A DNA stretch of 46,844 bases from a virus (taxonomy: Duplodnaviria; Caudoviricetes): IMG/VR virus record IMGVR_UViG_3300020716_000012, positions 1 to 46,844 of that record. The stretch is one strand, 5' to 3'. Below are positions 16,429 to 46,135 of the stretch, piece by piece (the first letter of the stretch is position 1; every line of letters starts with the position of its first letter). The notes beneath the pieces were generated by a model. It was not told where the DNA came from and searched no databases. It worked only from the letters and a program-made list of their open reading frames with translations. The translations under genes were made by a program, and so were the position numbers.

Positions 16429-16599
16429 CTTTCTTCTTAAACCTGATCTTAGTGGCCTATTATAATTTGATTTCGATTCTAATATAGCAACTCTTTTTTC
16501 TAATTCCTTAATGTATTCCACAAGAAGAATAAATCCTTCTTGTGAGTGCTCCGGGTCTTCTATCAGACCTAATATATCCTTTTCTAATTCCTTATCCAT
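16423..16599 (-). CDS. small hypothetical protein (58 aa)
   Basis: Read manually: MDKELEKDILGLIEDPEHSQEGFILLVEYIKELEKR...; TAATG overlap with the VWA gene. Confidence 0.6.
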   Translation of the reverse strand: MDKELEKDILGLIEDPEHSQEGFILLVEYIKELEKRVAILESKSNYNRPLRSGLRRKL

Positions 16600-18038: not shown

Positions 18039-18056
18039 TTTGTTTAGTTTTAGGGT

Positions 18057-19217
<1,161 letters not shown>

Positions 19218-19247
19218 AGAATAAATGTTTTATTTGTTTACAATATT

Positions 19248-20921: not shown

Positions 20922-20924
20922 TGT

Positions 20925-24600: not shown

Positions 24601-24660
24601 AGAGTTCTTTTGGATTATTTTAACTCCTATATTAGATATATAGATCATATAACAAATATT

Positions 24661-25515
24661 ATGCAAATATACAAAACAATAAATTTAATAAACAATAAAT
24701 TTTATATCGGTCAGGATAGTAAGGATAATCCTAGTTATTTAGGTAGTGGAGTTAGAATAAAATATGCTATAAGGAAATATGGCCGAGATAACTTTAAAAA
24801 AGAAATTATAGAATCTAATATAGATAACTTAGAAACATTAAATGAAAGAGAACTATATTGGATAAATCTTTATTGGGAAACATCTTCTAATATGATGTAT
24901 AATATTGCTAAACATCGTTTTGGCGGAACAAGTATGAAATTTAGAACTGAAGAGCATTATCAAAAAATAGTGGAAACTAGAAGAAAAAATGGTACTTATA
25001 TTGGCGCTCCTGGAAAGAGATCTCAAGAGACGAAAGATAAAATTAGTATTGGAAATAAGGGAAAGAAAAGATCTGAAGAAGATAATGAAAAGAATAGAAT
25101 AGGACATTTAGGTAAAAAACATACAGAGGAAACTAAAAAAATTATAGGAGATATTCATAAAGGAAATAGTTATTGTAAGGGGAAAACAGTTCCTTTAGAA
25201 ATTAGAAATAAAATTTCAGAAGGATTAAAGGGAAGACCAGTTAGTAAAAAAACTAGGGATAAACTTGCTAAAACAAATACTGGGAAAATTATGTCAGAAG
25301 AAGGACGTAAAAAAATTTCAGAAGCAGGAAAGGGGAGGAAATATACAGAAGAAACTAAAAAATTATGGAGTGAACAAAGAAAGGGAAGAAAACAATCGGA
25401 AGAATGGAAAAATAAAATAGCAAATAGTAACAAGGGGCAAAAAAGAAGTGAAGAAAGTAAACAAAAAATGAGAGATTCTAGAAAAAGGTATATTGAAAAT
25501 AAGAAAACCAGTTAG
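24661..25515 (+). CDS. GIY-YIG homing endonuclease with multiple NUMOD3 repeats
   Basis: MQIYKTINLINNKFYIG..YLGSG; many KGKKxSEETKxKIS units; GATATATA at 24635 supports the ATG at 24661. Confidence 0.9.
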   Translation: MQIYKTINLINNKFYIGQDSKDNPSYLGSGVRIKYAIRKYGRDNFKKEIIESNIDNLETLNERELYWINLYWETSSNMMYNIAKHRFGGTSMKFRTEEHYQKIVETRRKNGTYIGAPGKRSQETKDKISIGNKGKKRSEEDNEKNRIGHLGKKHTEETKKIIGDIHKGNSYCKGKTVPLEIRNKISEGLKGRPVSKKTRDKLAKTNTGKIMSEEGRKKISEAGKGRKYTEETKKLWSEQRKGRKQSEEWKNKIANSNKGQKRSEESKQKMRDSRKRYIENKKTS

Positions 25516-25546: not shown

Positions 25547-26665
25547 TTATTTCTTTTCTAATTCAAATAAGAAGGAGGTCCCTGCATCAAGTACCCTTGT
25601 GTAGCTATTTGACTGAACGAAAATCTTGTACTTGTTCATAATATCCGGCAGGCTCAGTGGTGATACACCGCCTTTAGTTCCGAATGGAACACCGAGTTGT
25701 TCGCGGCACCAATTGGTATCTGCGTTTGCTTCACCGGTTACCTTATCAACAAATATTACTTCCTTATTGGCCTGGATAATTTCGCGATTGGCCTTGCCAT
25801 CTGCGGTTCTTTCAATCAACTGATAGAATCCTCTGCCTTTCTTGTAAGTGGCGCCGGAGTCTTCTACAAATTGTTTAATTACCGTTGCCTCCGCTACCGT
25901 CATTACCTGAAACTTTGAAAGAAGCTCTATTTTCTCGTCTGATAGTGTTCCAGCGCCGGTTGTTAAACCGCGAAGCTTGTTGAACATCGCCCGAAGTGCC
26001 AAATTACCGGTGAATGATGGATCTGATTTCTGGTAGTCCTCCAGTTGTCCGGCCTGCGAGTAAACAATAGCATTGATATAGGTAACAATATGCTGGAACT
26101 GAGAAAGATCCAATTTAATGCCGCCTGTCATTTTAGAAATGCCATCGTAGAAATAATTACTGCCGCGATTACCGAGTGCCTGGACGCCATATATGGCAAC
26201 ACCCATTTCTCCAAGGGCTTTTGCTTCTTCCTTCCAATCATGGATACATGTCTGAAGGCCGCCACCTCTGCGGGAGTGTACCTGGTATCCTTTCATGTGC
26301 GGCGTCTCGTCCCCGATCATTATCAAAGCCTTCTTATCAGCTTTCCATGAAAGGTTCCTGGCCGAATGAAGTGCCAGTTCGTAGCACTCGGGTGAATCTC
26401 CACCACCGCGGGGTGAATCCTGGTCAATAAACGTTTTTACCTTTTTCATGTCCGTTGTAAAGTCCAGGATCTTCATATGATCTGGTGCATCACAATAGTC
26501 GTTCATGATAATGATGGCAAAGCGAATGCCCGGGATGTCCTTTGATAACTTATCTACGGTTTCTTTGGCTTTTGCCCGAACCTGCATGCGGACTGAATAC
26601 ATGCTACCCGTATCATCGAAGGAGATTACTACATCAAGTCCATTTATTATTACTTTTGGTTCCAT
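25547..26665 (-). CDS. VWA-domain protein with a beta-rich C-terminal domain
   Basis: DVVISFDDTGSM, GGGDSPECYELAL, IGDETPH. Confidence 0.82.
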   Translation of the reverse strand: MEPKVIINGLDVVISFDDTGSMYSVRMQVRAKAKETVDKLSKDIPGIRFAIIIMNDYCDAPDHMKILDFTTDMKKVKTFIDQDSPRGGGDSPECYELALHSARNLSWKADKKALIMIGDETPHMKGYQVHSRRGGGLQTCIHDWKEEAKALGEMGVAIYGVQALGNRGSNYFYDGISKMTGGIKLDLSQFQHIVTYINAIVYSQAGQLEDYQKSDPSFTGNLALRAMFNKLRGLTTGAGTLSDEKIELLSKFQVMTVAEATVIKQFVEDSGATYKKGRGFYQLIERTADGKANREIIQANKEVIFVDKVTGEANADTNWCREQLGVPFGTKGGVSPLSLPDIMNKYKIFVQSNSYTRVLDAGTSFLFELEKK

Positions 26666-27144: not shown

Positions 27145-27200
27145 CAAATATAAATAAAAGTTTCAGAATAAAAAAATACTAATTGTTAAAGAAAATATAA
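27145..27200 (-). promoter_or_regulatory. conserved early-type promoter copy 5
   Basis: TATATTTG at 27145-27152; tgttaaa at 27184. Confidence 0.75.
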
Positions 27201-27738: not shown

Positions 27739-28800
27739 CTATAGGAGCCCAATATAATTGGCATATTCTATAGTGCCTGCCAGGTCTTCAGAGATGCCTG
27801 CTTCTTGCATAACTATCTTTCTATAATTAGATGGAATCTTTTCGAGCATTGTTGGATTTTCCAAAACAAAATCTGCCATTCCCTTTGCCCAATGATTAGT
27901 TGGTTCCTCTGCTCCACTAAATAAAGATACCATTAATTTTGCAATTAGATTATCCTCATAATTCCGTTCTAGTATGAATTGAGATCCTTTTATAATTTTA
28001 ACAATGGTTTCAATGACCTTCTTCTCCATCTCTTCTTTGGTTTTTGCACCAACTAAGATTTCATAGGATCCATTGCTAGGTTCCCATGTTAATTTACCCA
28101 TTTTTGGGGAGGATTTAACAATAATGTGGATATTTTGTCTAATCATTCCAAATCTTAATTGAGTTTTATCATTACCAAAATAAGGTAATAGTAGTTTTTC
28201 CCAAAAACCAAAATTTGGTGCTTTCTCATCCCATGGTAATAAAAGGCCTAGACTTAATGTTGGTCTAAATAATCCATCATTACTAATCTTTTTCTCTGTT
28301 CCAATAAAATTAAAAATTTCTTTCCATTTTGGATCGTCAAATATAGAGTCCGCATTTTTAATATAGTAACCTTCCCCAAGGGATTCTAGATACATTATTG
28401 TTATATCCTGTATTTTCAATTCCTTCCCACGAGCGGGACAATTCGGATCTTGTAGCCATTTTCTAAAATCTGCTTGTTTTACATCATGTGGAGCTCTTTT
28501 AACAACCCCTTTAATCCAAACATCCTTTAGCATTTCTTCCATTGTATTATAATACATTTGGGAAAAAGGTCGCCCATCACTCAATGCAGTATAATACCAT
28601 CGCCCATCTGGTAATTTTCTTAAATACGTTTTACTCCCGAGGTCTATATAAAACCTATCTGTGCTTTTTAAAAGATAGCCTTCCGGTAATTTTCTTTTAT
28701 AGAGGATTGCCATGAGGTCTCGACCATCTTTGGTTGTGTTCAAACTTTCTCTTAGTTCCTTGTATACAGGGAACGTTTCGTAAGGATCTTTTATTGCCAT
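27739..28800 (-). CDS. hypothetical protein
   Basis: 353 aa ORF, TAATG-coupled to the HNH gene. Confidence 0.8.
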   Translation of the reverse strand: MAIKDPYETFPVYKELRESLNTTKDGRDLMAILYKRKLPEGYLLKSTDRFYIDLGSKTYLRKLPDGRWYYTALSDGRPFSQMYYNTMEEMLKDVWIKGVVKRAPHDVKQADFRKWLQDPNCPARGKELKIQDITIMYLESLGEGYYIKNADSIFDDPKWKEIFNFIGTEKKISNDGLFRPTLSLGLLLPWDEKAPNFGFWEKLLLPYFGNDKTQLRFGMIRQNIHIIVKSSPKMGKLTWEPSNGSYEILVGAKTKEEMEKKVIETIVKIIKGSQFILERNYEDNLIAKLMVSLFSGAEEPTNHWAKGMADFVLENPTMLEKIPSNYRKIVMQEAGISEDLAGTIEYANYIGLL

Positions 28801-29114
28801 TATTGTAAATTTTCTGAATCGAAATAGGCCTTCTCATAAGAAGACCCGATTTTTGTATAAAGTTCTTCTGGACTAAATCCAGGAAGTGATATTCCCGTTA
28901 TATGGAATTGCTCTGCGTTCCAGTGATGCTCAGAACACACGGTAATGCCATTAGAAGGTGCAAAACCGCCATTTGGCATCTCATGCCTATCTGTAATATG
29001 ATGTACGTCTAAACTCTCTGTAACGTGACAGAAAACACACTTATTGCCATCCCTATTGAGGCAATCCTGATTGAATATCTTTTTCCACCGTTTCTGGTCC
29101 TGCTTGGTCGACAT
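28800..29114 (-). CDS. HNH endonuclease
   Basis: RDGNKCVFC..LDVHHI..NGITVCSEHH. Confidence 0.85.
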   Translation of the reverse strand: MSTKQDQKRWKKIFNQDCLNRDGNKCVFCHVTESLDVHHITDRHEMPNGGFAPSNGITVCSEHHWNAEQFHITGISLPGFSPEELYTKIGSSYEKAYFDSENLQ

Positions 29115-30887: not shown

Positions 30888-31535
30888 TCACTCACCATCG
30901 AAATACAATTTAGCCCGTTTCCAATTTCGGGTCCAATGCTCATCAGTTTGAACATGTCCTTCTCTTACCCATTTTAACACACATTCACCAAAATCAGTAT
31001 CCGGAAAACCTGCTTCTGTTCTAAATACCACACCTTCTCTTTTTCCTCCTAATGCAGATGGTTCCTTAGCTAATTTTTCTACCAATTCCTTTAATTCTTT
31101 CTCAGTATTAACTACTCCTCTAAATAAAACGGGAACAGTTATTAAATCGAATAAGAAAGCGTATTCTTCCACTTCTGGCCAGGAAAGCCAATTCATTTCT
31201 TCCCTAATCCCAAACATATAGAAGTAAGACCGTAATCTTTCATATTCAATACTATGAATACCCTCCATGTTTTCTCCAAAAATATGAACACCCTCTGGAA
31301 TTTGATGTCCTATCCTCGCATGTAAATCCCTTACTGCCCGAGACCAAGGAGATATGGTAAATGCTGCATGACTACGAGCATACACACCCAAAGTCATTTC
31401 ATCCGTATTCTCACCATCCAATTTCTCTGTACCAATTATCGGTACACCAATTAATCTACTCACAGAAGGAGCTATCCTGTCATCACTAGTAGCGCCAGGG
31501 GAAAATGGAAAATGATATGTTCTATTATATTTCAT
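30888..31535 (-). CDS. ATP-dependent RNA ligase (nucleotidyltransferase domain)
   Basis: TEKLDGEN (motif I), FGEN, FYMFGI, EGVVFR, KWVR. Confidence 0.85.
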   Translation of the reverse strand: MKYNRTYHFPFSPGATSDDRIAPSVSRLIGVPIIGTEKLDGENTDEMTLGVYARSHAAFTISPWSRAVRDLHARIGHQIPEGVHIFGENMEGIHSIEYERLRSYFYMFGIREEMNWLSWPEVEEYAFLFDLITVPVLFRGVVNTEKELKELVEKLAKEPSALGGKREGVVFRTEAGFPDTDFGECVLKWVREGHVQTDEHWTRNWKRAKLYFDGE

Positions 31536-31543
31536 ACACAAAG

Positions 31544-31580
31544 CAAATATAATAAAAAGTTTCTGTATTAAAAAATATAT
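31544..31580 (-). promoter_or_regulatory. early-type promoter copy 6 (core only)
   Basis: TATATTTG at 31544-31551 with upstream T-tract. Confidence 0.55.
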
Positions 31581-31635
31581 TTTTGATATATATGAAACAT
31601 TCTATATTTTTTCCTGTATAAGAAAAAAAATAATC

Positions 31636-32043
31636 ATGTATCCATCACAAAAATTAGAACCATATTACCTTAATCAATTTGAGATGAACTTCTGTGACGG
31701 TGGTATTACTTATATTGGTTTAACTGAGTATGTAATATCCTATAAAATAGAAGATCGAATTCTTTGGGTTGATATGGAAGTTAGCCAAGGAAAATTTATA
31801 GAAAACTTTGAGTGTCTAAAGGCATCCAAAGAAATTAGAATAAGGCATTTTGACAAAAGTGGAAATGTTTACTTCCAATTAGAAGGAGAAACCGAGTTTA
31901 TTAGTACTACCGGATTTGCCGGCGATTATGAAGGAGAAGGATGTATGAGAATCAAGGTTTCTTACGTATTTAAAAACTTAGATATTACGGAGGATGGAAG
32001 ATATGGAAGTATTGGACACCCCGAAACAATAAAATTATTTTAA
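31636..32043 (+). CDS. hypothetical protein, possibly gp19 tail-tube-like fold
   Basis: KEIRIRHFDKSGNVYFQLE..GDYE..MRIKVSYVF resembles the C-terminal half of T4-type tube proteins; GATATATA at 31585. Confidence 0.45.
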   Translation: MYPSQKLEPYYLNQFEMNFCDGGITYIGLTEYVISYKIEDRILWVDMEVSQGKFIENFECLKASKEIRIRHFDKSGNVYFQLEGETEFISTTGFAGDYEGEGCMRIKVSYVFKNLDITEDGRYGSIGHPETIKLF

Positions 32044-32044
32044 T

Positions 32045-33139
32045 ATGATCCACAGTACCAAAATAATAGACTTTATCAAAAACGATTTAGGTAATGATAC
32101 AAGTCTATTTAACGAAACACCTTTTTATCAAAATGACATCGAACTAAAGAAAGGTAATCTACTATTTGATCTAACGGTGGAAGAATTAGAATCTATTGCA
32201 AAAGTAAAGGAAGATATTATTCATCTTGCCAATTCCTTTTGTAAAGTGAACACTTATGAAGGAATTAAACAAATCCAACTACACAAGTATCAGGAAGAAT
32301 ATTTAACAGCCCAAAAGAAATATAGGTTTATTGTTACAATGGCAGCTAGGCAAACGGGTAAAACCATTATGGAAGCTATCTATTGTATGAGTAAAATTTT
32401 AGAAGGAAAAAAGATATTATTAGTTAATAATAATAGGGATAGTGGAGTAGAGGTTCTTGACAAAATTAAAACTATTTATAGAAACTTACCATTCTATATG
32501 AAGCCTGGAGTTCAGGCTTGGAATCAAACCTCTGTTGTATTTGATAATGGGGCTAGGGTAATAGCAAAAGGATCATCAAAAGGACCTGCATTAGGTTATA
32601 CTTTTGATCTTGTCTATATTGATGAAGCTGCTCATATACCATATAATAGTTTTAATGATGTCTATATGATGGCATTTGGACAAATGTTAGCAAGTAGTGA
32701 TGGACAATTAATAGTACAATCTACACCAAATGGACGTAATAAGTTCTGGGAAATTTATAATGATGCTATAAATGGAAAAAATGTATTCTATCCACATAGA
32801 ATAGACTGGTGGTTAGTCCCGGGGAGAGATGAAGCGTGGAAAAAGGCAGAAACGATGAATCTTGGATCACAAGAATTATTTGATAGGGAATACGGCCTTT
32901 CTTTTGGTAATGCTCCAGAGGAAAAAAAGGAGGAGCCAGAAAAGAAAGAAGATAATCCAGCAAAGACAACAACAGGAAATACGCTAGAGCTAATAACAGA
33001 AAGGCTTGCTCGTGTCGAAAAAATGTTAGAGATCCAGACTGGAGAAGGCGCCCCGTTTTTTAACAGAGAATTTATACTCACTAAGTTTATGGGATTAACC
33101 CCGGACGATATACAGAAATTGGGATTATCACCGCTTTAA
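32045..33139 (+). CDS. T4 gp17-like terminase large-subunit ATPase domain lacking the nuclease domain
   Basis: LHKYQ, ARQTGKT, YIDEAAHI, QSTPNG, WWLVPGRDEAW..FDREY; then a linker and short tail with no RNase H-like domain. Confidence 0.85.
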   Translation: MIHSTKIIDFIKNDLGNDTSLFNETPFYQNDIELKKGNLLFDLTVEELESIAKVKEDIIHLANSFCKVNTYEGIKQIQLHKYQEEYLTAQKKYRFIVTMAARQTGKTIMEAIYCMSKILEGKKILLVNNNRDSGVEVLDKIKTIYRNLPFYMKPGVQAWNQTSVVFDNGARVIAKGSSKGPALGYTFDLVYIDEAAHIPYNSFNDVYMMAFGQMLASSDGQLIVQSTPNGRNKFWEIYNDAINGKNVFYPHRIDWWLVPGRDEAWKKAETMNLGSQELFDREYGLSFGNAPEEKKEEPEKKEDNPAKTTTGNTLELITERLARVEKMLEIQTGEGAPFFNREFILTKFMGLTPDDIQKLGLSPL

Positions 33140-34048
33140 GTTTATAAAATCACTATATTTAGGAATTTTAGATTCTTTTACAGAATTGAAAGGATCCTTG
33201 AAATTAATTTCACCAGATGCTAAGGTCTTTTCCCAGTTGGGGGCATATTCCGTTTGTGGCATTAGTCCTCTATCTGGGGATCCTTTGGCAGGCTGGGATA
33301 TTTTTTGCATTGTGTGAATATTTTTCCAGAAATACCTAGCTGCTGTTTGATTAGCCATATTATGTTCTTCGTGTGGAAGAATTTTTTTAAATTCTACTAA
33401 TTTGTCATAGGTTAATTTACAAATATGTTTTTTTACATATTTGTAAATATCATACTTTCTACAATCGTACATATTTTTTCCCTCAACATGTTCGACAGGA
33501 ACAGACCCAACTTCGGCAGCTATTGCCATTTGGACGGTTTTTAATGCTTCTATCGGACTTATATCAAAATTTATATTTACACAAGACATATTAGCTTGGG
33601 GATTCATAGCATAAATTTGAGACCATCTATGGTGTCCATCAATAATATATTTGGAATTTAAAGTTACTATTGGACCCCTCACTTCAACAGATTTACCATC
33701 TAAAATCATATCTATTTGATCCGGATACTGTGCGGTTAATTGTACTTTTAAGGATTTATCTAGATCTATTTCTCTTTGGGTTGGTCTTAAATCACTCACT
33801 TTTATAATCTCCTTAGTAAATTTCATTTTCTCATCGTCTGGCTTACCATCTTTTAATCCAGCCTTTAACAAATGATCTATACGAGGATTCTTAACGTCAT
33901 TACTCAAGACGTTAATAAAATCCTTATAATCCAAATTAATTATATCCTTATAGACCTCTGCCGGTGAATCTTTTGGAGTATCGCCAGCAGGTAAGATAGG
34001 AACGTTAGTATCTTCTAATAATTTAGTATATTCTAGATAACTCTTCAT
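33128..34048 (-). CDS. ParB/sulfiredoxin-fold protein with capsid-targeting-like N-terminus
   Basis: LRPTQ, YIIDGHHRW; MKSYLEYTKLLE; GATATATA at 34053-34060. Confidence 0.75.
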   Translation of the reverse strand: MKSYLEYTKLLEDTNVPILPAGDTPKDSPAEVYKDIINLDYKDFINVLSNDVKNPRIDHLLKAGLKDGKPDDEKMKFTKEIIKVSDLRPTQREIDLDKSLKVQLTAQYPDQIDMILDGKSVEVRGPIVTLNSKYIIDGHHRWSQIYAMNPQANMSCVNINFDISPIEALKTVQMAIAAEVGSVPVEHVEGKNMYDCRKYDIYKYVKKHICKLTYDKLVEFKKILPHEEHNMANQTAARYFWKNIHTMQKISQPAKGSPDRGLMPQTEYAPNWEKTLASGEINFKDPFNSVKESKIPKYSDFINLKR

Positions 34049-34065
34049 CCATTATATATCAACCG

Positions 34066-34506
34066 TTACGGTTTCAATATCTGGATAATTGCTTCTACCC
34101 CTTCATCTAAATTTGGAGCGATAATATTACCAAATTCTAGCATACCATGTGAATGGATATTATCCTTTTCCATTACTAAAACGACTGGAATTTGGTATGC
34201 CCTACCCCATGCTATTTCCATAACTGTACCAATTGATACCCTTTTGGCACCTAATAAATTCACCAAAATGGCATCTGCAGTCTTACAATCATTAAAATCG
34301 CGGACATTGATACCAGTAATAGAGCTCATAGTGTAATCACTATAGGAATCCTGTATCATATCTTCCTTACTTAGATAATTCTTACCCCTCATTGGAGAGT
34401 ATCCATGAAGACCGTGGTCCTTTAAATGTTCTACAACTCCTTCTCTCCAATTGTTAACGGTTCCATAATCATAGCCCGTAATTGGACCTGCTAAATAAAC
34501 TTTCAT
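34066..34506 (-). CDS. nucleoside 2-deoxyribosyltransferase/N-glycosidase-like protein
   Basis: MKVYLAGPI..RDFND..ADAILVNL..SIGTVMEIAW. Confidence 0.8.
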   Translation of the reverse strand: MKVYLAGPITGYDYGTVNNWREGVVEHLKDHGLHGYSPMRGKNYLSKEDMIQDSYSDYTMSSITGINVRDFNDCKTADAILVNLLGAKRVSIGTVMEIAWGRAYQIPVVLVMEKDNIHSHGMLEFGNIIAPNLDEGVEAIIQILKP

Positions 34507-34516
34507 ATGTTTTGGT

Positions 34517-34864
34517 TTAATTAATTATTTTAATACGATTTGCTAAATAAACATAAGACTTACTCTTTTCTTTTCTTCTAAGCCCTTCTGCGTGACATTC
34601 GACAATTACCCGATCCGTTCTTTTAAATCTCTTCAGATATTCTTCTGCATTTTCTTTACCTTCTATAATATGAATTCCAGAGGTGTATTTAGTTCCATGT
34701 CCATCCATGACATTTTCTCTAATTTCACCTTCTATCCAAGTATCAATAGGTAGTTTTCTTGTTCCCCCAATCCCGTGGAATAATGTATATAGGTTGGAGT
34801 TCTTTTTTTCTACTATCTTATAGTAGACTGGAGGATTTACATTCCTCCGGTTTTCGAGTTGCAT
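34517..34864 (-). CDS. hypothetical protein
   Basis: 115 aa ORF; YTLFHG..YTSGIH. Confidence 0.7.
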   Translation of the reverse strand: MQLENRRNVNPPVYYKIVEKKNSNLYTLFHGIGGTRKLPIDTWIEGEIRENVMDGHGTKYTSGIHIIEGKENAEEYLKRFKRTDRVIVECHAEGLRRKEKSKSYVYLANRIKIIN

Positions 34865-35040
34865 ATAGCTGCGTGTTTGAATTTATAAATACGATACCTT
34901 CCTGTGTAATATTCTGCCCTATCTTTGGTCATAATAGCTCCATGTACTGATTCGTCACTATTAATATACCAAAAATTGGAACCTTCATAGAGGGGTTTAC
35001 CATCTAATGTCATTGCGAGTACTTCCTTATTACTTTCCAT
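34837..35040 (-). CDS. hypothetical protein
   Basis: 67 aa ORF. Confidence 0.55.
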   Translation of the reverse strand: MESNKEVLAMTLDGKPLYEGSNFWYINSDESVHGAIMTKDRAEYYTGRYRIYKFKHAAICNSKTGGM

Positions 35041-35092
35041 TTCTTAGTTTTACTATTTTAAACTTCAAAGACGTAATCGAATGAAATTTAAT

Positions 35093-35116
35093 TTGGTCGA
35101 AGCATACGCCGACCAA
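35093..35116. terminator. hairpin downstream of the WYL gene, weak terminator candidate
   Basis: ttggtcg..cgaccaa stem; poor U-tract. Confidence 0.35.
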
Positions 35117-35117
35117 C

Positions 35118-35345
35118 CTATATTATTGGACTTAGTTCCGAATCATTGTTCCACATCATAACATCCTTCATTGCAAAATTCCTTTCTTCTCCTTTTTCTA
35201 TATCAATTGCATGAAGGAACCATTGTAATTCCTGGTGGAATTCTGTTCCACCATACCATATTTTAATAGGATGTACTCTTCTATGTCCAATAACTCCTTT
35301 CCAATTCTTATAGGTTATGTAAACTGGATTTCCTAATAATTCCAT
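35118..35345 (-). CDS. stand-alone WYL-domain protein
   Basis: ITYKNWKG..RRVHPIKI..WFLHAIDIEKGEERNFAMKDV. Confidence 0.8.
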   Translation of the reverse strand: MELLGNPVYITYKNWKGVIGHRRVHPIKIWYGGTEFHQELQWFLHAIDIEKGEERNFAMKDVMMWNNDSELSPII

Positions 35346-35363
35346 TTAAGTTATATTTAAAAA

Positions 35364-35549
35364 TTATTGAATAATGTCATCCGTGAACTTTTGTAAATTT
35401 ATTTCTATTTTACTTAATGCGGCTTCGTGTTTTTTCTTCTCTTGGAGTAATCTGTGTAATTCTACCTTGTCGTGATGATTAAGACCATCTTCGTGTTCCA
35501 GGATATACTCTATTTCTTTCTGGATACGCTCTAACAAATTCCTTTCCAT
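35364..35549 (-). CDS. small coiled-coil protein
   Basis: 61 aa ORF; GATAAATA at 35582-35589 upstream. Confidence 0.55.
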   Translation of the reverse strand: MERNLLERIQKEIEYILEHEDGLNHHDKVELHRLLQEKKKHEAALSKIEINLQKFTDDIIQ

Positions 35550-35791
35550 TTTTGTTGTTATTTTGAATTTTTTGTATCCTATATTTATCTATAGGTCAAA
35601 GAGTTTTCCAGCCCTCGGGGATTAGTGCATTTAGTTAATTTTCCTCAAAATTTGATTAAAATAATCGCCTTGGAAGTGCATTTTGGTCGATTTTAAGCTT
35701 GAAATTTTAAATCCAAAATTATTTTTAATATAAATCATTAGGGGCAAGAAATAGGCTCAAATTTTTGAACTTTTTTAAATATCCCGTCATT

Positions 35792-36091
35792 TTATAGATC
35801 TACCTTTTTATAGTATTCGGCTTTGGGCTCTTTGACAACTATTTCAAGTAGATATTTGAGTTGGGACATTTCTGCGTAATCAATATATCCCTTAGCCAAA
35901 TCATAATCGGTATAGTTCATATCAAATCCATTCCCATCATCTACTAGCCAACATGCTTTTTGCCCGCGAACTTTATCCTCCCAAATAGGATTATTGGAGT
36001 AATGGAGTGTATGGATTTCTTTTCCATCTTTTTCCTCCTTGGTATAAGTGTATTCGTGATTTCCTTCCAGGAATAATTCTATCTGTTCCAT
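35792..36091 (-). CDS. hypothetical protein
   Basis: 99 aa ORF overlapping the tail of the upstream ORF. Confidence 0.65.
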   Translation of the reverse strand: MEQIELFLEGNHEYTYTKEEKDGKEIHTLHYSNNPIWEDKVRGQKACWLVDDGNGFDMNYTDYDLAKGYIDYAEMSQLKYLLEIVVKEPKAEYYKKVDL

Positions 36092-36728
36092 TTTTCTTTT
36101 TTATAAATCGAATGTTCTTTTTTCTTCTTGGTCTTCTAGGTGTTTGCCTATTTGAGTATTCATACTTTAATCCAGGATAGGTATAATCCAAATACATCAA
36201 TGACATTTTAGGTCCAGACATCGGTGTTACTGCAACCAAATCCATACCAATTGTTTTGGCTGCTACCCTGGCTGCTATTGGCATTATATTACCAACTCCT
36301 CCTTCTTCATCTTGGAGAATCTCTATAGTCTTTTTTACCTCTTCCTCAGACATATCTACCGGAAGATAGATTGTAGATTGATTACTTGCCCAAGTGAAAT
36401 GAGTCTTAAATTCTGTCCAAAGACCAGAAGAATCTGGAACAAAAAATCTATTTCTATAGACCGGCCATTTACTCTCTCCTTGGCTATCAAAAGAATCCCA
36501 ATTAGTTTTATAATAAGGTTCTTCTTTTTCTTTGGTATAGACTCTTTGAAAAATACCATCTCTCATAGAGCAATACGTAATTCTACCTGGAGCCTCTTCA
36601 TCTATTTGTCCTATGTAGAAAAGAGGATCTCCTTCAATGGGACACTTCAAACCAGTATCCCTTAATTCCTCTAAAGGAAATTCCTTAATTCTCCGCTTAA
36701 AATCCGCGATTGTTGCTGGATCATACAT
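35991..36728 (-). CDS. hypothetical protein containing a gp23 major-capsid-like peptide
   Basis: IMPIAARVAAKTIGMDLVAVTPMSGPKMSLMYLDYTY at 36177-36287. Confidence 0.65.
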   Translation of the reverse strand: MYDPATIADFKRRIKEFPLEELRDTGLKCPIEGDPLFYIGQIDEEAPGRITYCSMRDGIFQRVYTKEKEEPYYKTNWDSFDSQGESKWPVYRNRFFVPDSSGLWTEFKTHFTWASNQSTIYLPVDMSEEEVKKTIEILQDEEGGVGNIMPIAARVAAKTIGMDLVAVTPMSGPKMSLMYLDYTYPGLKYEYSNRQTPRRPRRKKNIRFIKKKNGTDRIIPGRKSRIHLYQGGKRWKRNPYTPLLQ

Positions 36729-37524: not shown

Positions 37525-38877
37525 TTAGTTTTCAACCCAAACTTCCACCCTCCTATTCTCTGCTCTTCCTTCTTCCGTTCCATTATCACGTAGTGGAATT
37601 GCTGATCCGAGGCCAAGTGTTCTGGATATTTTGGCTCCATGTAATTTAAGAGCGTCCCGTAGTGTATTAGCCCTATTTAAAGAAAGTCCTATATTTCCGG
37701 CAGGATTTCCTTGATTATCTGTAAAGCCAACAAGTACCAGGGATTTTCTTTTGTTCTCATCCTTCGAAAGGAATTTAATAACCCTTTCAATATCGTCATT
37801 TGCCCGGCTATCCAATGTTGAACCTCCATACTCGAAACGGAATTCGGTAGAAATCATTTTACCGTTTGCGGCTAATTTTTTATACTCTGGGGGATCAGTA
37901 TCATTTACTTCGGGATTTTTAGTATCATCAATAAATTCCACATCAAAATTAACAAAACCTGTTTTTTCAACAATATCCTGGCCTTCGTCCTCTTCGATCC
38001 AATCGAGGAATTTTTGTATATGAGGATTATCAGGCTTCTCGGAAGAATACATATAAATACGCATAGCCAAAGGATATTCCTCGCTTTGTATAGTTAAGTC
38101 ATTAGGAAGTATTGGAGAAGAAGTAGCTGTTTCTTTAATTGGTACAACTCTTATTCCTGTATTTTTAAGGAACTCATAGTCTACAAATCCAATGCCATTT
38201 GGATCTTTTGCTACCGCATCTAGCAATTCCTTCTCGTCAGAAAATCCTTTTGCGGTAGCGCTAATCCTCTTCTTTTCCATTATCTCCTGGTCGAAGAATT
38301 CGTAATACTCATTTGTTTTATCCAATACATAAAGGTTCATTTTTGTGGAAGAAGTTCCCTCAAATATATCTGCTATTTCTGCGACGGATAGGGCAGTAAC
38401 ATTCTTATTATCTTTGGAGACTATAATACCGACTGCATCCATACCGACCTCCTTTTCTTCGTCATTGTTGTTAGCCGGTGCTTCGAGAAGAGAGATAGCT
38501 ATGTCTGCTTTCTTTTCGCTTATGGCTGTCATTCCTGCGGAATTTCCAACTGGCTGGATTAGGATACTTTCCTTTTTGCCTTTTAGAGTTCCAGTTACTT
38601 CGGATCCAGCCGCTCCACGATTGTTAATGGTTACATTTTCATAACCGTTCTCTTCCATATATCCTTGTGCCAGTTCCGGTGCAAGGTCTTCCGACATAAC
38701 GGTTGAACCTGCAATTGTTAGGATAATGTTATCGGAAGAACTTGGTGTTAATAAGCTCCCTGGGGAGTCTCCGGAAATGCCCTTGTAATTCCGGTACATT
38801 TGAAAGCTTACTACTCCTGCTGCAATGAACAGTACTAATGTAATAATCTTTCCTGCGGGCTTCATACGAATTGCCAT
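37525..38877 (-). CDS. membrane-anchored PstS-like binding protein/OmpA fusion (degenerate ligand site)
   Basis: N-terminal TM; LTIAGST, GMDAVGIIV, YPLAMRIYMY; OmpA GFTDNQG..LSLNRA..NRRVEV. Confidence 0.85.
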   Translation of the reverse strand: MAIRMKPAGKIITLVLFIAAGVVSFQMYRNYKGISGDSPGSLLTPSSSDNIILTIAGSTVMSEDLAPELAQGYMEENGYENVTINNRGAAGSEVTGTLKGKKESILIQPVGNSAGMTAISEKKADIAISLLEAPANNNDEEKEVGMDAVGIIVSKDNKNVTALSVAEIADIFEGTSSTKMNLYVLDKTNEYYEFFDQEIMEKKRISATAKGFSDEKELLDAVAKDPNGIGFVDYEFLKNTGIRVVPIKETATSSPILPNDLTIQSEEYPLAMRIYMYSSEKPDNPHIQKFLDWIEEDEGQDIVEKTGFVNFDVEFIDDTKNPEVNDTDPPEYKKLAANGKMISTEFRFEYGGSTLDSRANDDIERVIKFLSKDENKRKSLVLVGFTDNQGNPAGNIGLSLNRANTLRDALKLHGAKISRTLGLGSAIPLRDNGTEEGRAENRRVEVWVEN

Positions 38878-38940
38878 GATTGAAATTTGTTGATTTTGTT
38901 AATTGATGATTGTTAAAATATGAATAAAAGGTTTAGTTGA

Positions 38941-40302
38941 CTAGTTAGTCAACCAAACCTCCACTCTCCTATTGTTTGCCTGATCTTCCGGTGTAGCATT
39001 TCCTCTTACCGGACGTAATGGCCCAAATCCGAGTACTTGTTTTACATCTGCTCCCCTTGCTGTCAGTACACTCTTTACCGTATTTGCCCTGGTGAGCGAT
39101 AGTGCAGTGTTTTTGTTTACATCACCTACGTTATCAGTAAAGCCTACGAGTATTAATTTCTTACCCCTATTCTCGGATTGGGAAAGGAAAGATATTACCC
39201 TACTTACGTCTGCCAGTGCCCTACTATCCAGTGTTGTTCCCCCAAATTCGAACCGGAACTCTGTAGTTATCTTCTTACCAGTATTAATCAAGTTAGTATA
39301 AGCTGGTGGATCTCCTGGCATACCTATTGGATTATCGTTATTATTATTAACATTGACCGTTAGATTGATAAAGCCGCTGTTTTGTACGACCGCTTGTCCA
39401 TTGGCAGATTCTACATAATTTAGGAAAGATCCTGCTGTTTGGTCTGCTTGTTTCGGAGTATACATATACAGCCTTCTGCAGAGAGGGTATTTTTCCGACT
39501 GGATGGTCAAAGCGTTTGGAATTATACCAGGCATACCAGGGCTAATACTGATTGGTACTGCTCTTATCCCCGAGGTTGAAAGGAAAGTGTAGCTGGCAAA
39601 GCCAACACCATTTGCATCGCTACTTATAGCAGTTGCTAACTCAGCTCCAGATGCGAACTTTTTTGCATTGCCATTAATTTCGCGGCCAGCCATTGCAACC
39701 TCTTTAAAAACTTTGTAGGTTCCACTATTATCGTCCATTCTGTATATGGAATTACCACTACTAAAAGTGTTTTGTAAATCCGGCATACTTAATGTGTTGA
39801 TAGAACTACTGTTACTGACGATAACTGCTATACCGTCCAGGCCAATAACGTGTTCATTATAATTACCGGTGTTGTCTTTGGAAGAAGCCATACAAATACT
39901 GGCACCGCCATTAGAGATGGATGAAAAGCCGGTACTTGTTCCATGGGCTGAAATATCCACACGGTCTGTTTTTCCATTCTTCGTTCCAACTACTGCCTTT
40001 TCATCCTTACCGGTATTAAGTATCTGGACGTTGGAATAACCAGTGCTTTCCATCCAGCCTTTACAAAGTGCTGGTGCCAGTACGTCGCCAATTGTATTAG
40101 AACCGGCAATTTTCAGAATAGAAGTGCTCTGTGGGACTTCTGCTGTCTGTTGTGTAGCTCCTGATGAGGATGTTACCTGATCATTACCCGAGCTCGTTGG
40201 GTGGGGGTGGGATGTGTAGTATTTGTAATATCCTCCTCCTGCTATTGCAAGGATTAATACGAGGAAAAATACTTTACCGCCGGTCTTCATTTTGAGTGCC
40301 AT
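38941..40302 (-). CDS. membrane-anchored PstS-like binding protein/OmpA fusion
   Basis: IAGSNTIG, HGTSTG, GLDGIAVIV, RMDDNSGT, YPLCRRLYMY; OmpA GFTDNVG..NRRVEV. Confidence 0.88.
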   Translation of the reverse strand: MALKMKTGGKVFFLVLILAIAGGGYYKYYTSHPHPTSSGNDQVTSSSGATQQTAEVPQSTSILKIAGSNTIGDVLAPALCKGWMESTGYSNVQILNTGKDEKAVVGTKNGKTDRVDISAHGTSTGFSSISNGGASICMASSKDNTGNYNEHVIGLDGIAVIVSNSSSINTLSMPDLQNTFSSGNSIYRMDDNSGTYKVFKEVAMAGREINGNAKKFASGAELATAISSDANGVGFASYTFLSTSGIRAVPISISPGMPGIIPNALTIQSEKYPLCRRLYMYTPKQADQTAGSFLNYVESANGQAVVQNSGFINLTVNVNNNNDNPIGMPGDPPAYTNLINTGKKITTEFRFEFGGTTLDSRALADVSRVISFLSQSENRGKKLILVGFTDNVGDVNKNTALSLTRANTVKSVLTARGADVKQVLGFGPLRPVRGNATPEDQANNRRVEVWLTN

Positions 40303-40344
40303 AACGCTTTTGTTTTTTGATTGTTAATAATTAATTTAATACAG

Positions 40345-40400
40345 CAAATATACAATTTGTATTCTGAATAAAAAAATTATAGTTGTTAAAGATTTTATAA
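40345..40400 (-). promoter_or_regulatory. conserved early-type promoter copy 7
   Basis: TATATTTG at 40345-40352; tgttaaa at 40384. Confidence 0.75.
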
Positions 40401-40418
40401 AATAATTATAAAGGGGTT

Positions 40419-41189
40419 TTAACGGATGGTTGTTACCCTTATTCCATATCCAAGCCCGTCATAGTTACTACCAAAGGAGATGTATTCTGCGTATGCCCCT
40501 ATTTGGAAATACGTTCTGCCTGTTTTAAGTCCTACTCCTCCGGAGAACGAACCTTTGATAGCATACGAAAGATTCTGTTTTACTAGTTGATTACAATACC
40601 TAACACCCTGTGATACCTCAACCGAGAAATAGAGTCCGCTGGGTTTTCCCAATTCAACTAAATTGAGGGTTATTGGAATTCCAAGATAACTAATACGATA
40701 CAATGTATTCCCAGACTTTTCCTTCACCGTAGAAGTATCTGTTTGAGAGGAAAAATACATAAATTCCCCGCCAATACTAAGATTAACGTTATTAGTCATC
40801 TGGTAACCAAATTGATGTTCCAAACCGCCGCTTACGCCACCCTTCCATTTGTCTACAGAAGTGTTACTAAGGATTATACCCCCACCGCCATTAAAGGTCC
40901 AGCTTTTAGTATGTCTTCCGAAAGAATCTACCCTAGCTTTTTCTGTTTTTTCCTGGTCAAATGTTTGTGTAGTACCATTTGCATATTTAATTGAGATTAT
41001 ATCAGAAACGGGTACTACATATACCCTTTGTGTTTTACTCCCCCAATCATAATACCGAACGTTCTTTTTTGCAACCTCTACTACTTGTACCTTCATTGTA
41101 TTCCCACTTCGGAGAACCAAGATATCCTGGGCGTGGACTGCTGTCGAGGCGAGGATAATTAAAACGAGCATTGATAAAAAATGTTTCAT
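40419..41189 (-). CDS. exported protein, probable outer-membrane beta-barrel
   Basis: Signal peptide (AVHA-Q); QDILVLRSG..VVEV..VRY N-domain; alternating Gly/aromatic beta strands, SYLGIPITL. Confidence 0.7.
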   Translation of the reverse strand: MKHFLSMLVLIILASTAVHAQDILVLRSGNTMKVQVVEVAKKNVRYYDWGSKTQRVYVVPVSDIISIKYANGTTQTFDQEKTEKARVDSFGRHTKSWTFNGGGGIILSNTSVDKWKGGVSGGLEHQFGYQMTNNVNLSIGGEFMYFSSQTDTSTVKEKSGNTLYRISYLGIPITLNLVELGKPSGLYFSVEVSQGVRYCNQLVKQNLSYAIKGSFSGGVGLKTGRTYFQIGAYAEYISFGSNYDGLGYGIRVTTIR

Positions 41190-41212
41190 TGTTTTGTTTA
41201 ATTGTTTAATTG

Positions 41213-42043
41213 TTATTGGATAGTGTGTACTAAAGAATTGGACATCAAGGTTTTTATTTCACCTATTATTTGTCGAAACCTCGGCATTTCACGTATCTCA
41301 GAATGATATGCAAGGTCCTCTTCTAAAAAGTCATAAGTTTTAAGTATTGTTGATCCTGGATTTACTCCATCAGATCCAAGTACGAAAACATGGTCGGCAA
41401 TTGCACATGCGGATTCTATATCATGGGAAACTATGATAATAGTGTTTTCCTCTGTAATGTCAGCAGCCTTTATTAGGAGTTCGGTAACTTTGTCCTTTAC
41501 TACAAAATCCAGGCCTGAATAAGGCTCGTCCGCAAGGAGTATTTGATTACCTGCAAGAATTTGTTGGAGTATTGCTGCCCGTTGTCTTTGTCCCCCTGAT
41601 AATTCGCTTGGGTACTTTTGCAGCTGGTCAAAGAGGTCAAAATAATTACTATACTCACTTATCACGCTGTCCTTATTATTATTACCCTTTAAGGCAATAT
41701 GGAAATTTTCATAAATGGTTCGGTGATTAAGCAATGGATAATTTTGTGGAATCACTCCAACCTCTCCCATTTGTACAAGGTGTTGATCTACTCCTACTCT
41801 TACAAAGCCACTGCATCCATTTTCTTCTGTCAATTCTAAAAATCCAGAGAGTGCCTTGAAAAGGGTGGATTTTCCACAACCGCTAGGTCCAATGATTGCT
41901 ATTATTTGACCCTTAGCCTTTCCAGTTTCAGGAAGTACTATATCTTTGATTTGGAAATTGATGTTGTGTAGAGCAACTTTATCACCGTAGGATACATTGA
42001 GATTTTCGACCGAGATTAATACTTCTTTAAGTTGATAGTTCAT
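41213..42043 (-). CDS. ABC transporter ATPase (NitT/TauT-like)
   Basis: GPSGCGKST, PQNY, LSGGQRQR, LLADEPYSGLD, VSHD. Confidence 0.92.
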   Translation of the reverse strand: MNYQLKEVLISVENLNVSYGDKVALHNINFQIKDIVLPETGKAKGQIIAIIGPSGCGKSTLFKALSGFLELTEENGCSGFVRVGVDQHLVQMGEVGVIPQNYPLLNHRTIYENFHIALKGNNNKDSVISEYSNYFDLFDQLQKYPSELSGGQRQRAAILQQILAGNQILLADEPYSGLDFVVKDKVTELLIKAADITEENTIIIVSHDIESACAIADHVFVLGSDGVNPGSTILKTYDFLEEDLAYHSEIREMPRFRQIIGEIKTLMSNSLVHTIQ

Positions 42044-42909
42044 TTGGAAGTTTTTTTAGCAAGCTTAGGAAATATTTTTCTAGTCCGGAATAATTGGAAT
42101 AATTGATTTATCCAAAGTTTTCTTGCCCTATCGGGATTAGTATATGGAAATATCCAAACTCCGATTACTTTAAATAGGTAATCAAATATCCACGCTACAC
42201 CTAGTATAATGGCAAGAATAGCAAATACTCTACCCATTCTAAAGTGTCGATTTTCTGTGGTTAATAATGTACCTAATCCTCCCTTAGACCAACATAGTAT
42301 TTCAAGACTGCTTATCATCATCCACCCAATAGCAAAATTTTGGCGAACAACTTCAAGCGCAAGATGTAGTTTTCCACGGATTATTGTTTCATAAAGAACT
42401 TCCCATCTTTTCATTTTTAAGGTGTAGCACAATTGATATTCCTCATCAGGAATGTCGTCAATATATGCGAGAAGAGAAGTAACAAAGTAAGGGACTATAC
42501 CACATACTAAAACCCAGAATTTAATTGCTCCGTTATCATGGAGCATCATGGTTAATACAAATACAAAACCTGCGTAAGTAAGGTATCTTAATTTTGATAC
42601 CAATACGCTGAAACCCCTAAAGGCATCAATTTTATAAATGTAACAAAAGAATAGTGAAATTAGTGTTGCTGTTCCCATCCCCCGAAGGAGGAAGAATACT
42701 GTTATCCAGAAATTTTGCATAAAGTCTGGAGCTCCAACGACAACAAGACCCTCTGGAACAACATCAGAGGGTCTTGGTATCAAGTCGTTGCTTTGGAACT
42801 GAAGAAAAAGAAGCACTACCAAAATTTGAACGATTGTTATTATCATTCTGGATTGTTTTGATCTCTTCAGTATAAAATTTGGTGCGAATATACTTCTTGA
42901 TTTTTCCAT
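42040..42909 (-). CDS. ABC transporter permease (NitT/TauT-like)
   Basis: About 6 TM helices; IPRPSDV; EAA-like loop IPDEEYQLCYTL; GGLGTLL; ATGA-coupled to the ATPase. Confidence 0.82.
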   Translation of the reverse strand: MEKSRSIFAPNFILKRSKQSRMIITIVQILVVLLFLQFQSNDLIPRPSDVVPEGLVVVGAPDFMQNFWITVFFLLRGMGTATLISLFFCYIYKIDAFRGFSVLVSKLRYLTYAGFVFVLTMMLHDNGAIKFWVLVCGIVPYFVTSLLAYIDDIPDEEYQLCYTLKMKRWEVLYETIIRGKLHLALEVVRQNFAIGWMMISSLEILCWSKGGLGTLLTTENRHFRMGRVFAILAIILGVAWIFDYLFKVIGVWIFPYTNPDRARKLWINQLFQLFRTRKIFPKLAKKTSK

Positions 42910-42929
42910 TTGGATTTTTTTAATTGGCT

Positions 42930-43124
42930 TTATGCCTCGACTCGATTATTGATTTGGTTTAACAATACGTCGATATAAGGAGTCGGCGGGTTGTTCTTGT
43001 ACCTGAACTTAGTATCTGTTACCTTTTCTATTTTAATTTTTTGGCCATTGTTAGAAATTGTAAAGCTTCTATTCCCAGTTTTTTCAACCTCAAAGCCAGC
43101 GTCTTTTAATCCTTTTATTGTCAT
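42930..43124 (-). CDS. small hypothetical protein
   Basis: 64 aa ORF within the locus. Confidence 0.55.
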   Translation of the reverse strand: MTIKGLKDAGFEVEKTGNRSFTISNNGQKIKIEKVTDTKFRYKNNPPTPYIDVLLNQINNRVEA

Positions 43125-43146
43125 AACGATTAAAATTAAGGATTTG

Positions 43147-43176
43147 AAAAAACCAGCGAGACCGAAGCCTCGCTGG
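43147..43176 (-). terminator. intrinsic terminator with C(UUCG)G tetraloop
   Basis: Minus strand CCAGCGAGGC-TTCG-GTCTCGCTGG-TTTTTT. Confidence 0.88.
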
Positions 43177-43185
43177 GGGAACCAA

Positions 43186-45009
43186 TTATTTTGTCAGGAG
43201 CGAGATTTGAACCCTGCGGTTTTGCCTACGTCCTTCTTCTGTGGTGTTAGGTGCTATCGCATCCCTTGATCCACGTCCTTCAGTAGGGAAGAAACGATTT
43301 TCTTCTAAACCTCTATCGGTCAGGCGTTTTTTAACAGAAGCTGCCCTGGCTGCGGATAATGGGGTATTTACAGCATCACTACCGCTATTGTCGGTGTAAC
43401 CAATTAACAATGCCTTGGCCTCAGGCGTTGTGTTCAATTCCTGATAAATGGCTTCAATATCTGCATCTGAGGAAGCTGCTACTTCTGCGGAATTGAGGTC
43501 AAATTCAATATGCCATGCTTTATTACCTATTCTATTAGTCATCTTACCTTCCATCGATGGCAAATTAGCCTTGCCCTTTAACAATTCGGGGTGTTTTTGT
43601 GTAACGTTGAATAAGACCGCTTTATTATAGCCCTTATCATAGGTAGGATATGTTGGAAGATCGTCAGGAAAATATTTATGTTGCAACGCACCGAAGGTAT
43701 TATAGACAGAACCATAAATATCATTGTTATCAGTCATACCTTTAATCATAATGCCTACCATATTTGCCATGTCCGCCAGATTATATACACGAGATCCTCC
43801 AAGGTGATTTGTAGAATCTGGTAATCCATCTTTACCTGGTACTGGTAGTTTTACGCCATTGAAATATTTGTACCAATATTCCTCGGTTTCCTCCTTATAG
43901 ATTTTTGCATTAATGCCACATGCGAACTTTTTAACATCTTCGAATGAACGTATTTGGTCTCCGGCGATAGCAGTACCGATAATTAAGTTTTCTGCAACTT
44001 CCTCATGATCTTGTATCCATTTGGCACATGTGATAGTTACGGCTGGCATAATCGAAGCATATTCATATGTAGATGCAATAGTTACGGTTACCGATCCTCT
44101 TGGCCCATTATGGACAGTAACATCGCCCGGTGTCCAGGTAGCAACAAGGTCTATTCCTACTAAGGTATCTCTCTTTTGGTCAACACCGTCTATAAATAGC
44201 CTGCGACTTTCTTTTACGTTTGCATTATAATCAGTGGCAGCTATTGTATAGTCTGTGACAAAGCGAAGATTAAGTGCATGTAGTTCATAAACTTTGTCGT
44301 TCGAATTAACAGGCTGGCCAAATGCACCTGCATATTTGAAACCGCAGTCTTCGTCGCCATCAAGTTTTACGCATATCATAACTGCACCTTTGAGGTTGTT
44401 GGGGTCATCTTTATATTTCCTTGCTCCCATAACCTGGTCTTCTCCGTGGGATGATCCTGGCATCATAAAACCTTGTGGCCAGTATTCTTCTGGCACATTA
44501 GCAGCTTTAAGAGCGACGTCTATATTATATAACGCTCCCATAACCCCAGTTCCCATATACGTCGCCATATAAAATGGTGTATTAGGGTTCTTTTGGTAAT
44601 CCTTACAGAATTGAATTACCTTTGCCTGGGATTGATTGCAATCTTTCTGACGTTCAATAGTCATACTAAATCCCATTTGGCCGAATATGGAGCCTTTTGT
44701 CGTCTGCGGTCCTCCATTTGCATAGTTAAACCCAGTACTTGCTTGCCATCCCATATCTGCAACTGTACCATGTATTGTGCCGGCTGTTACATCAGCACTT
44801 GGAAATGGTATTTTTTTCGCATCCATCGGCGGTAAAGATGCTTCAGGAGCATCTGGTGTTGCTACTTCGCCCTGAGATACTATTACGGCGGGTGCAACCT
44901 TCATCGGTTTGTGTTTGCTCCAAAAGTAGTAGCCTCCGCCTAAAAGTCCTACTATTAACAGAAGTATAAGTCCCTTACCTCCTGGTGTCATTCTTAATTG
45001 TGTACTCAT
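43186..45009 (-). CDS. membrane-anchored substrate-binding protein/OmpA fusion
   Basis: N-terminal TM; SSHGED, ATWTPGD; OmpA FDLNSA..GYTDNSG..LSAARA..NRRVQI. Confidence 0.82.
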   Translation of the reverse strand: MSTQLRMTPGGKGLILLLIVGLLGGGYYFWSKHKPMKVAPAVIVSQGEVATPDAPEASLPPMDAKKIPFPSADVTAGTIHGTVADMGWQASTGFNYANGGPQTTKGSIFGQMGFSMTIERQKDCNQSQAKVIQFCKDYQKNPNTPFYMATYMGTGVMGALYNIDVALKAANVPEEYWPQGFMMPGSSHGEDQVMGARKYKDDPNNLKGAVMICVKLDGDEDCGFKYAGAFGQPVNSNDKVYELHALNLRFVTDYTIAATDYNANVKESRRLFIDGVDQKRDTLVGIDLVATWTPGDVTVHNGPRGSVTVTIASTYEYASIMPAVTITCAKWIQDHEEVAENLIIGTAIAGDQIRSFEDVKKFACGINAKIYKEETEEYWYKYFNGVKLPVPGKDGLPDSTNHLGGSRVYNLADMANMVGIMIKGMTDNNDIYGSVYNTFGALQHKYFPDDLPTYPTYDKGYNKAVLFNVTQKHPELLKGKANLPSMEGKMTNRIGNKAWHIEFDLNSAEVAASSDADIEAIYQELNTTPEAKALLIGYTDNSGSDAVNTPLSAARAASVKKRLTDRGLEENRFFPTEGRGSRDAIAPNTTEEGRRQNRRVQISLLTK

Positions 45010-45081
45010 GATCGTTTTTTGTTTACGTTGTTTAGTTAATAATTGTTAATTGATTAATTGATTAATTGATTAAATGGCTGA

Positions 45082-46068: not shown

Positions 46069-46135
46069 GTTTACGTTTTCTTTTTTTTGGTTAATTGATA
46101 ATTGTTAATTGATTGTTTTGTATTTGATTTTACTT

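Follow-up and report, generated by a model that had tools for sequence, protein, structure and literature searches.

Nuclease-less terminase, trimmed tail-tube paralog and capsid-motif protein in the accessory region of a probable megaphage: candidate assembly-incompetent look-alikes of virion proteins

The 46,844-bp Caudoviricetes record IMGVR_UViG_3300020716_000012 (called here the window, i.e. the whole stretch analysed) carries three genes made of parts of virion proteins. Two of them form a conserved two-gene unit and encode a tail-tube paralog lacking a full-length ring-stacking hairpin and a paralog of the large terminase, called mini-TerL, which has no nuclease domain and ends in a piece of portal crown. 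The third encodes a protein with a short segment of the major capsid protein. The three open reading frames (ORFs) are under purifying selection and neutral decay is rejected. The reading we favour, at a probability of about 0.36, is that they are assembly-incompetent look-alikes, which would occupy host phage sensors that need a second contact absent from the copies. An initial annotation, made from the sequence alone, had described orphan fragments of terminase, portal, tube and capsid at this place; all four resemblances are real.

Mini-TerL (364 aa; 32045..33139, + strand) consists of an ATPase domain (residues 1-288, 32045..32908) and a portal crown-derived tail (residues 312-357, 32978..33115), the latter lying behind a charged linker of low conservation. 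Walker A (32345-32365), Walker B (32609-32626) and the coupling motif are intact. The protein matches Terminase_6N (E 5e-13) and T4 gp17 (E 1.5e-33 over residues 28-261). No match to the nuclease half was found in it with a profile built from 60 full-length relatives, and Pfam detected no C-terminal RNase H-like nuclease domain in any of the 11 subfamily members. Ten orthologues of 326-403 aa align with mini-TerL end to end at 48-64% identity, and Walker A and B, as well as all the catalytic motifs, are kept throughout the subfamily (11/11).

The tail was identified with a profile of 11 megaphage portals, which matches residues 312-357 at E 3.7e-8. Among 17 test proteins, this profile matches T4 gp20, mini-TerL, seven aligned orthologues and P0209, and misses the other seven, including full-length TerL. 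The matched segment corresponds to profile positions 452-497 of 555 and to gp20 residues ~458-499, the gp20 crown being residues 451-524 (PMC4493910). Only crown positions match: about 45 residues resemble the gp20 crown, fused behind the ATPase, and mini-TerL has no wing, stem or clip. Both the ATPase without nuclease and its portal-like tail are as the initial annotation had them. The tail is found in 8 of the 11 subfamily members and is absent from three, including that of the nearest sibling, G008. Crown tails are 32-51% identical to that of the window, above the linker and below the ATPase. In an AF2 model the tail folds as two helices with a pLDDT of about 65.

Mini-TerL is 45% identical to the 605-aa TerL of the phage (P0017). 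A careful tree was built from 36 sequences, 17 full-length forms and 19 of the 41 short ones; in it, mini-TerL belongs to a subclade of 10 short forms with support 95/96. Grouping of mini-TerL with the phage's own TerL was rejected (p-AU 3.6e-78), so that mini-TerL is an old paralog and not a fresh duplicate. The Walker A lysine is present in 19 of the 41 short forms, compared to 197 of 199 full-length homologues. Nine of the 41 are interspersed among full-length proteins and could be truncated or split by an intein; the other 32 cluster in a quick tree, and 20 of these lack the lysine, indicating that catalysis is dispensable across many short forms. A further protein, P0135 (612 aa), contains two tandem nuclease-less terminase ATPase units, neither with the Walker A lysine.

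The gene upstream of mini-TerL encodes the 135-aa tube paralog (31636..32043, + strand). It has the tail-tube/Hcp fold, a beta-sandwich with one helix, and is 28% identical to the phage's own tube. Alignment to the latter and to T4 gp19 showed that the N-terminal arm, ~28 residues around the hairpin tip and an 18-residue loop after the helix are missing, and that a C-terminal extension is present. The deletions are identical in 5/5 orthologues, none of which has a full-length hairpin or the arm. From the alignment and PMC13581612 we infer that the deleted part is the ring-stacking hairpin, and the paralog is predicted to be unable to stack rings. Its stop codon is separated from the mini-TerL start by 1 nt. 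The two genes are adjacent in 3/3 loci read and constitute a conserved two-gene unit; no tube neighbour was found at the loci of the distant short terminase forms L148 and L149.

An RNA ligase gene (30888-31541, - strand) lies divergently upstream of the pair, as it does in the distant L084 (3-227); in L003, the ligase and the pair are separated by two inserted genes, one of them homing-endonuclease-like. About 45 nt upstream of the tube-like ORF is the motif GATATATA (31585..31592, + strand), tentatively a possible late-type phage promoter. It occurs in 7 copies in the window, and the copy upstream of the tube paralog is kept in sibling G008. In G003 it precedes 20 of 43 genes carrying the N-terminal motif shared in the clade versus 41 of 510 others; among the 11 virion core genes it precedes only 2, in G001 as in G003. 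Two intergenic elements, 31544-31591 and 35636-35729, recur in the phage's contigs (alignments of 45-50 bases), with a partial copy of the former at 27145-27178. They are possibly promoters; a Bacteroidota-type pattern, looked for with respect to these elements, was not enriched.

The third gene encodes a 245-aa ORF (35991..36728, - strand), on the strand opposite to the pair and 2.85 kb away from it. It comprises an N-terminal domain (residues 1-140) with no family assigned, a 41-residue major-capsid motif (residues 146-186, 36171..36293) and a variable linker. The motif matches the capsid profile of the clade at E 7.6e-16, near profile positions 85-149 of 581, and Pfam Gp23 at E 1.7e-4, below the family cut-off. 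This is the only segment to match the capsid profile, so the whole HK97 fold is not present, and no match was found for residues 1-145. It is equivalent to T4 gp23 residues ~93-134 and thus spans the segment equivalent to the Gol region of gp23, which we take to be residues 94-122. Gol consists of 29 residues in the first quarter of gp23 (PMC3014915). Compared to the distant orthologue P0284, identity is 35/41 in the motif, 59/132 in the N-terminal domain and 9/23 in the linker that follows. The last 33 codons of the ORF (35991-36091) are shared, in a different frame, with the next gene; 3/3 orthologues retain both this overlap and the position of the stop, and dS in the overlap is 0. Among five candidates, three contigs gave a match to this ORF, and it was not found for a 401,578-bp contig that has the pair.

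Selection was estimated by the Nei-Gojobori method against sibling G008. The dN/dS ratio is 0.13 for the tube paralog and 0.16 for mini-TerL, both rough values since dS is near saturation for these two genes, and 0.20 for the capsid-motif ORF, with dN 0.049 and dS 0.383 within the motif. In the controls, neighbouring genes gave 0-0.5 and overlapping shadow frames 0.86-4.7. The initial annotation had kept decaying duplicates as an alternative. That the three genes are functionless duplicates or recombination debris is very improbable, even if fragments, several of them very small, are numerous in large megaphage genomes: the ratios fall in the range of neighbouring genes and away from that of shadow frames, reading frames stay open in 10 orthologues at the identities given above, and mini-TerL does not derive from the present TerL of the phage.

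The window is an AT-rich run of accessory genes, chiefly on the minus strand, and the pair lies there outside any packaging or structural module. The 135-aa and 245-aa proteins are identical, letter for letter, on four contigs, the longest of which (473,921 bp) is also that assigned to the TerL P0017. In L232, P0017 is followed by a 1099-aa sheath-like gene and then two tube genes; L232 shares a dataset number with L002, the carrier of the short terminase, and the sibling pair L003/L233 repeats the pattern. As judged from these matching records, the window is probably a piece of a T4-like megaphage of ~474 kb whose intact virion genes lie elsewhere. Mini-TerL is not its packaging motor, the 605-aa TerL being placed by sheath and tube genes. 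The best-scoring runs containing window DNA are freshwater metagenomes. Intact copies elsewhere, which the initial annotation had wanted confirmed, were located for terminase and tube in what is probably the same phage and for the portal in the sibling's G006; no capsid or portal gene of the phage itself was retrieved. The copies also lack parts needed for productive assembly (the nuclease half and the tube stacking segments), in agreement with the non-assembling character given to them. Full-length portal genes occur as tandem pairs in four relatives (G001-G004; L313-L320), the second copy being cut off in G006, and the clade also has two tandem tube genes.

Pieces of virion genes are also found in related megaphages. 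In four of five complete megaphage records, an unrelated ORF contains the capsid motif a second time. W04 encodes a 390-aa nuclease-less terminase, stand-alone crown peptides occur in W04 and W05, and portal clip-region fragments in W01 and W04. A census was made from 48 core genes common to at least 3 of 4 genomes (G001, G003, W02, W04) and annotated with PHROGs, a fragment being a shorter ORF that matches <60% of the core-gene profile. It gave 28 virion or packaging fragments (capsid 13, protease/scaffold 6, portal 4, terminase 2, tube 2, sheath 1), three of which lie within 15 kb of the parent, one of these probably being an intron-split half. Of the 11 virion or packaging genes, 6 gave rise to fragments; of the 37 others, 3 did (4 fragments; Fisher p 0.0023), six of these 37 being unannotated genes that could be structural. 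Zero fragments were obtained in a reversed-sequence control.

Small-ORF clusters are present in L187 (W01, 1333-2870) and L188 (W02, 1339-2063). Partly by eye, both place an ORF with a capsid N-terminus plus Gol region beside portal-clip-like pieces; the W01 portal piece was confirmed, and a sheath-N-terminus-like peptide was seen by eye in the same cluster. In L190 (W04, 1219-2589), a 456-aa ORF in which the capsid motif was scored appears to hold in addition a DNA-polymerase-like part and a sheath-N-terminus-like motif.

What could these proteins do? Homology, deletions, selection, age and pairing are observed; for all three proteins we infer every binding partner, and the timing. Several findings were counted for look-alikes that occupy sensors. 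Each copy keeps the core of a fold and loses the productive part; the frequent loss of the Walker A lysine shows that many short forms can do without catalysis; purifying selection acts on the three genes, with constraint focused on the motif in the capsid ORF; the divergence from the phage's own proteins would limit self-poisoning, the shape being kept for sensors that read folds; and the fragments of the clade are biased to virion genes, several of which are reported immune triggers. Such triggers include capsid, portal, terminase, tube and prohead protease (PMC13581612, PMC13601566, PMC13728456), the last as a trigger of CBASS (PMC13728456). Mini-TerL would occupy the pocket for the ATPase in a two-site sensor of the Avs3/Avs1 type but make no nuclease contact; SeAvs3 requires both domains of the terminase (bioRxiv 10.64898/2026.08.25.746987). 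A tube sensor of the Avs16 type, modelled to contact the tube hairpin (PMC13581612), would be bound by the tube core without being offered that hairpin. The capsid motif would compete at a motif-reading system of the Lit/EF-Tu type; Lit and CapRel read short motifs (PMC13581612). The crown tail is likely an optional oligomerisation tag, and GATATATA hints at late co-expression with the real virion proteins.

A body of data weighs against this interpretation. In the published work, the ATPase domain alone strongly activated EcAvs2 with 5/5 terminases and activated all three Upx homologues tested, and toxicity was also seen when EcAvs2 was combined with T4 vs.8, a homologue of the terminase ATPase domain (PMC13601566); Avs2-trypsin is likewise activated by the ATPase alone (bioRxiv 10.64898/2026.08.25.746987). 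Mini-TerL keeps Walker A and B. Activation is also documented for DSR2, by monomeric tube (PMC10981675), and for Lit, by Gol, which binds EF-Tu (PMC3014915); Avs7, 8 and 10 bind the capsid A-domain (PMC13581612), not the N-terminal motif kept here. The fragment census is itself uneven (W04 18, W02 8, G003 2, G001 0): W04 alone is significant (p 3e-4) and W02 alone gives p 0.12, so the enrichment comes mostly from one genome, and the two genomes nearest this phage have the fewest fragments. Replication genes yielded one fragment from 7 genes, though replication proteins are sensed too (by Avs19-21; PMC13581612).

The initial annotation had proposed mimics that bind Avs, DSR2 or Lit-type sensors without activating them. 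Its decoy idea is supported as far as homology, intact parents, selection and missing parts are concerned; the non-activating binding is not supported as written, the published pairings being mostly activation, and a decoy role is plausible only for sensors that need the deleted part (Avs3, Avs16). Avs2, Upx and DSR2 are predicted to be triggered by the same proteins, which would make any gain for the phage dependent on the sensors of its host. Nor is a single coordinated set of four parts supported, the capsid-motif gene being a separate unit and the crown tail absent from three subfamily members. A more sweeping form of the look-alike reading seems rather doubtful to us: a decoy proteome, in which pieces of capsid, portal, protease, terminase and tube, trimmed of the contact that fires the sensor, would saturate pattern-recognition immunity. 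On this view the tube-ATPase-crown unit would cover three virion signatures with a single cassette, and many relatives would have lost the Walker A lysine as an adaptation that keeps ATP-reading sensors such as Avs2 from being tripped.

Interference with assembly is a close rival of occupying sensors, though doubtful in its own right. The proteins might modulate assembly or act as dominant-negative poisons, either against co-infecting relatives or to time the phage's own assembly: the ATPase would compete for portal or small terminase, the tube core would cap or terminate tubes, and the capsid motif would disturb head assembly. Enrichment of fragments in genes for multi-subunit assemblies, with nearly none from enzymes, is what polymer poisons would give, and the possible late-type promoter would suit them. 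In T4, packaging is inhibited by a 24-residue peptide of the portal clip that binds gp17, and it is through its ATPase that gp17 docks on the portal (PMC4493910); clip fragments are among those of W01 and W04. Low identity to the phage's own partners, however, makes specific co-assembly doubtful, and no mechanism sparing the phage's own assembly is visible. Moreover, the crown is inside the head and the terminase outside (PMC4493910), so that the fusion cannot fill both places at one vertex.

It is improbable that the genes merely have unrelated roles and are chance neighbours in an accessory region, virion genes being the commonest raw material through abundant late transcripts and conserved, easily detected motifs; the capsid motif could then be an EF-Tu-binding tag on a carrier domain. 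The opposite strands and separate units, the 401,578-bp contig with the pair and without a detected capsid ORF, the optional crown, the binding of EF-Tu by Gol itself (PMC3014915) and the favouring of conserved segments by homology search all agree with this view. Yet low-copy portal and terminase also give fragments while sheath gives one, tube and ATPase genes are neighbours in all three loci read, and virion-fragment ORFs cluster in W01 and W02 too. A repurposed machine, in which a crown-held active ring ATPase and a single non-stacking tube ring would translocate nucleic acid or protein in a task that has nothing to do with virions, appears slightly more improbable still. The catalytic motifs retained across the subfamily, the close and conserved pairing and the Hcp-like fold would fit such a device, but loss of the Walker A lysine in 20 of the 32 clustered short forms, the loss of the crown and the distant short forms with no tube neighbour speak against it.

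Elsewhere in the window, a gene run at 37525-46843 (- strand) resembles a periplasmic binding/transport set. It includes a PBP-like protein with a C-terminal OmpA domain (Pfam) and, by eye, a similar neighbour, an ABC ATPase-like/permease-like pair, a coiled-coil membrane protein and a 607-aa protein whose end is OmpA-like. At 16599-21953 (- strand) are tandem duplicated pairs of an AAA ATPase and a VWA-like partner (MoxR/CobS-CobT-like, by eye), the ATPases of which match core profile 44; a further VWA-like gene is located at 25547-26665. Homing-endonuclease-like ORFs occur at 1719-2636, 7351-7986, 24610-25515 and 28800-29114 (GIY-YIG-like by eye; HNH by Pfam/PHROG).

Compared to known systems, mini-TerL resembles the ATPase domain of T4 gp17 (PDB 3ezk, 2o0h; Terminase_6N) in Walker A, Walker B and coupling motif and differs from gp17 by the missing nuclease half, the portal-crown tail and the presence of a separate TerL in the same phage. 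The closest precedent in kind, weakly similar in sequence, is T4 vs.8: it too is an accessory ATPase akin to the ATPase domain of terminase, encoded by a phage whose TerL is intact. In contrast to mini-TerL, vs.8 is 219 aa long, has no crown tail and is far more distant from true TerL; the pairwise E-value of 0.0015 is weak and about equal to that of gp17 with vs.8, and the two are probably independent derivations as judged from such comparisons. The authors who described its toxicity left the role of vs.8-type proteins open, anti-defence being one possibility named (PMC13601566). The tube paralog differs from T4 gp19 and T6SS Hcp in lacking the arm, most of the hairpin and the post-helix loop, and in being encoded outside a tail module. 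The capsid motif covers the Gol-equivalent segment, but it is carried by an unrelated 245-aa protein and likened to Gol by sequence, and Gol activates Lit rather than blocking it (PMC3014915). A functional precedent is DSAD1, a phage protein that binds the structural-protein sensor DSR2 and prevents its activation; it is described as an allosteric inhibitor (PMC10981675), whereas the candidate here is a tube paralog itself. In the literature searched, no description was found of a terminase-portal-crown fusion or of its pairing with a hairpin-less tube, nor of a counted bias of orphan fragments to virion genes; passages of PMC11564622 gave nothing further on decoys.

Bacterial sensors read folds that phages cannot change, which raises the question of how phages with conserved virion proteins cope. 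The locus provides natural, selected truncations that drop elements which, according to structures or models, some sensors need (the terminase nuclease and the tube hairpin). If they block sensors, this would be anti-defence by self-mimicry; if they block assembly, they would be phage-encoded inhibitors of packaging and tail growth.

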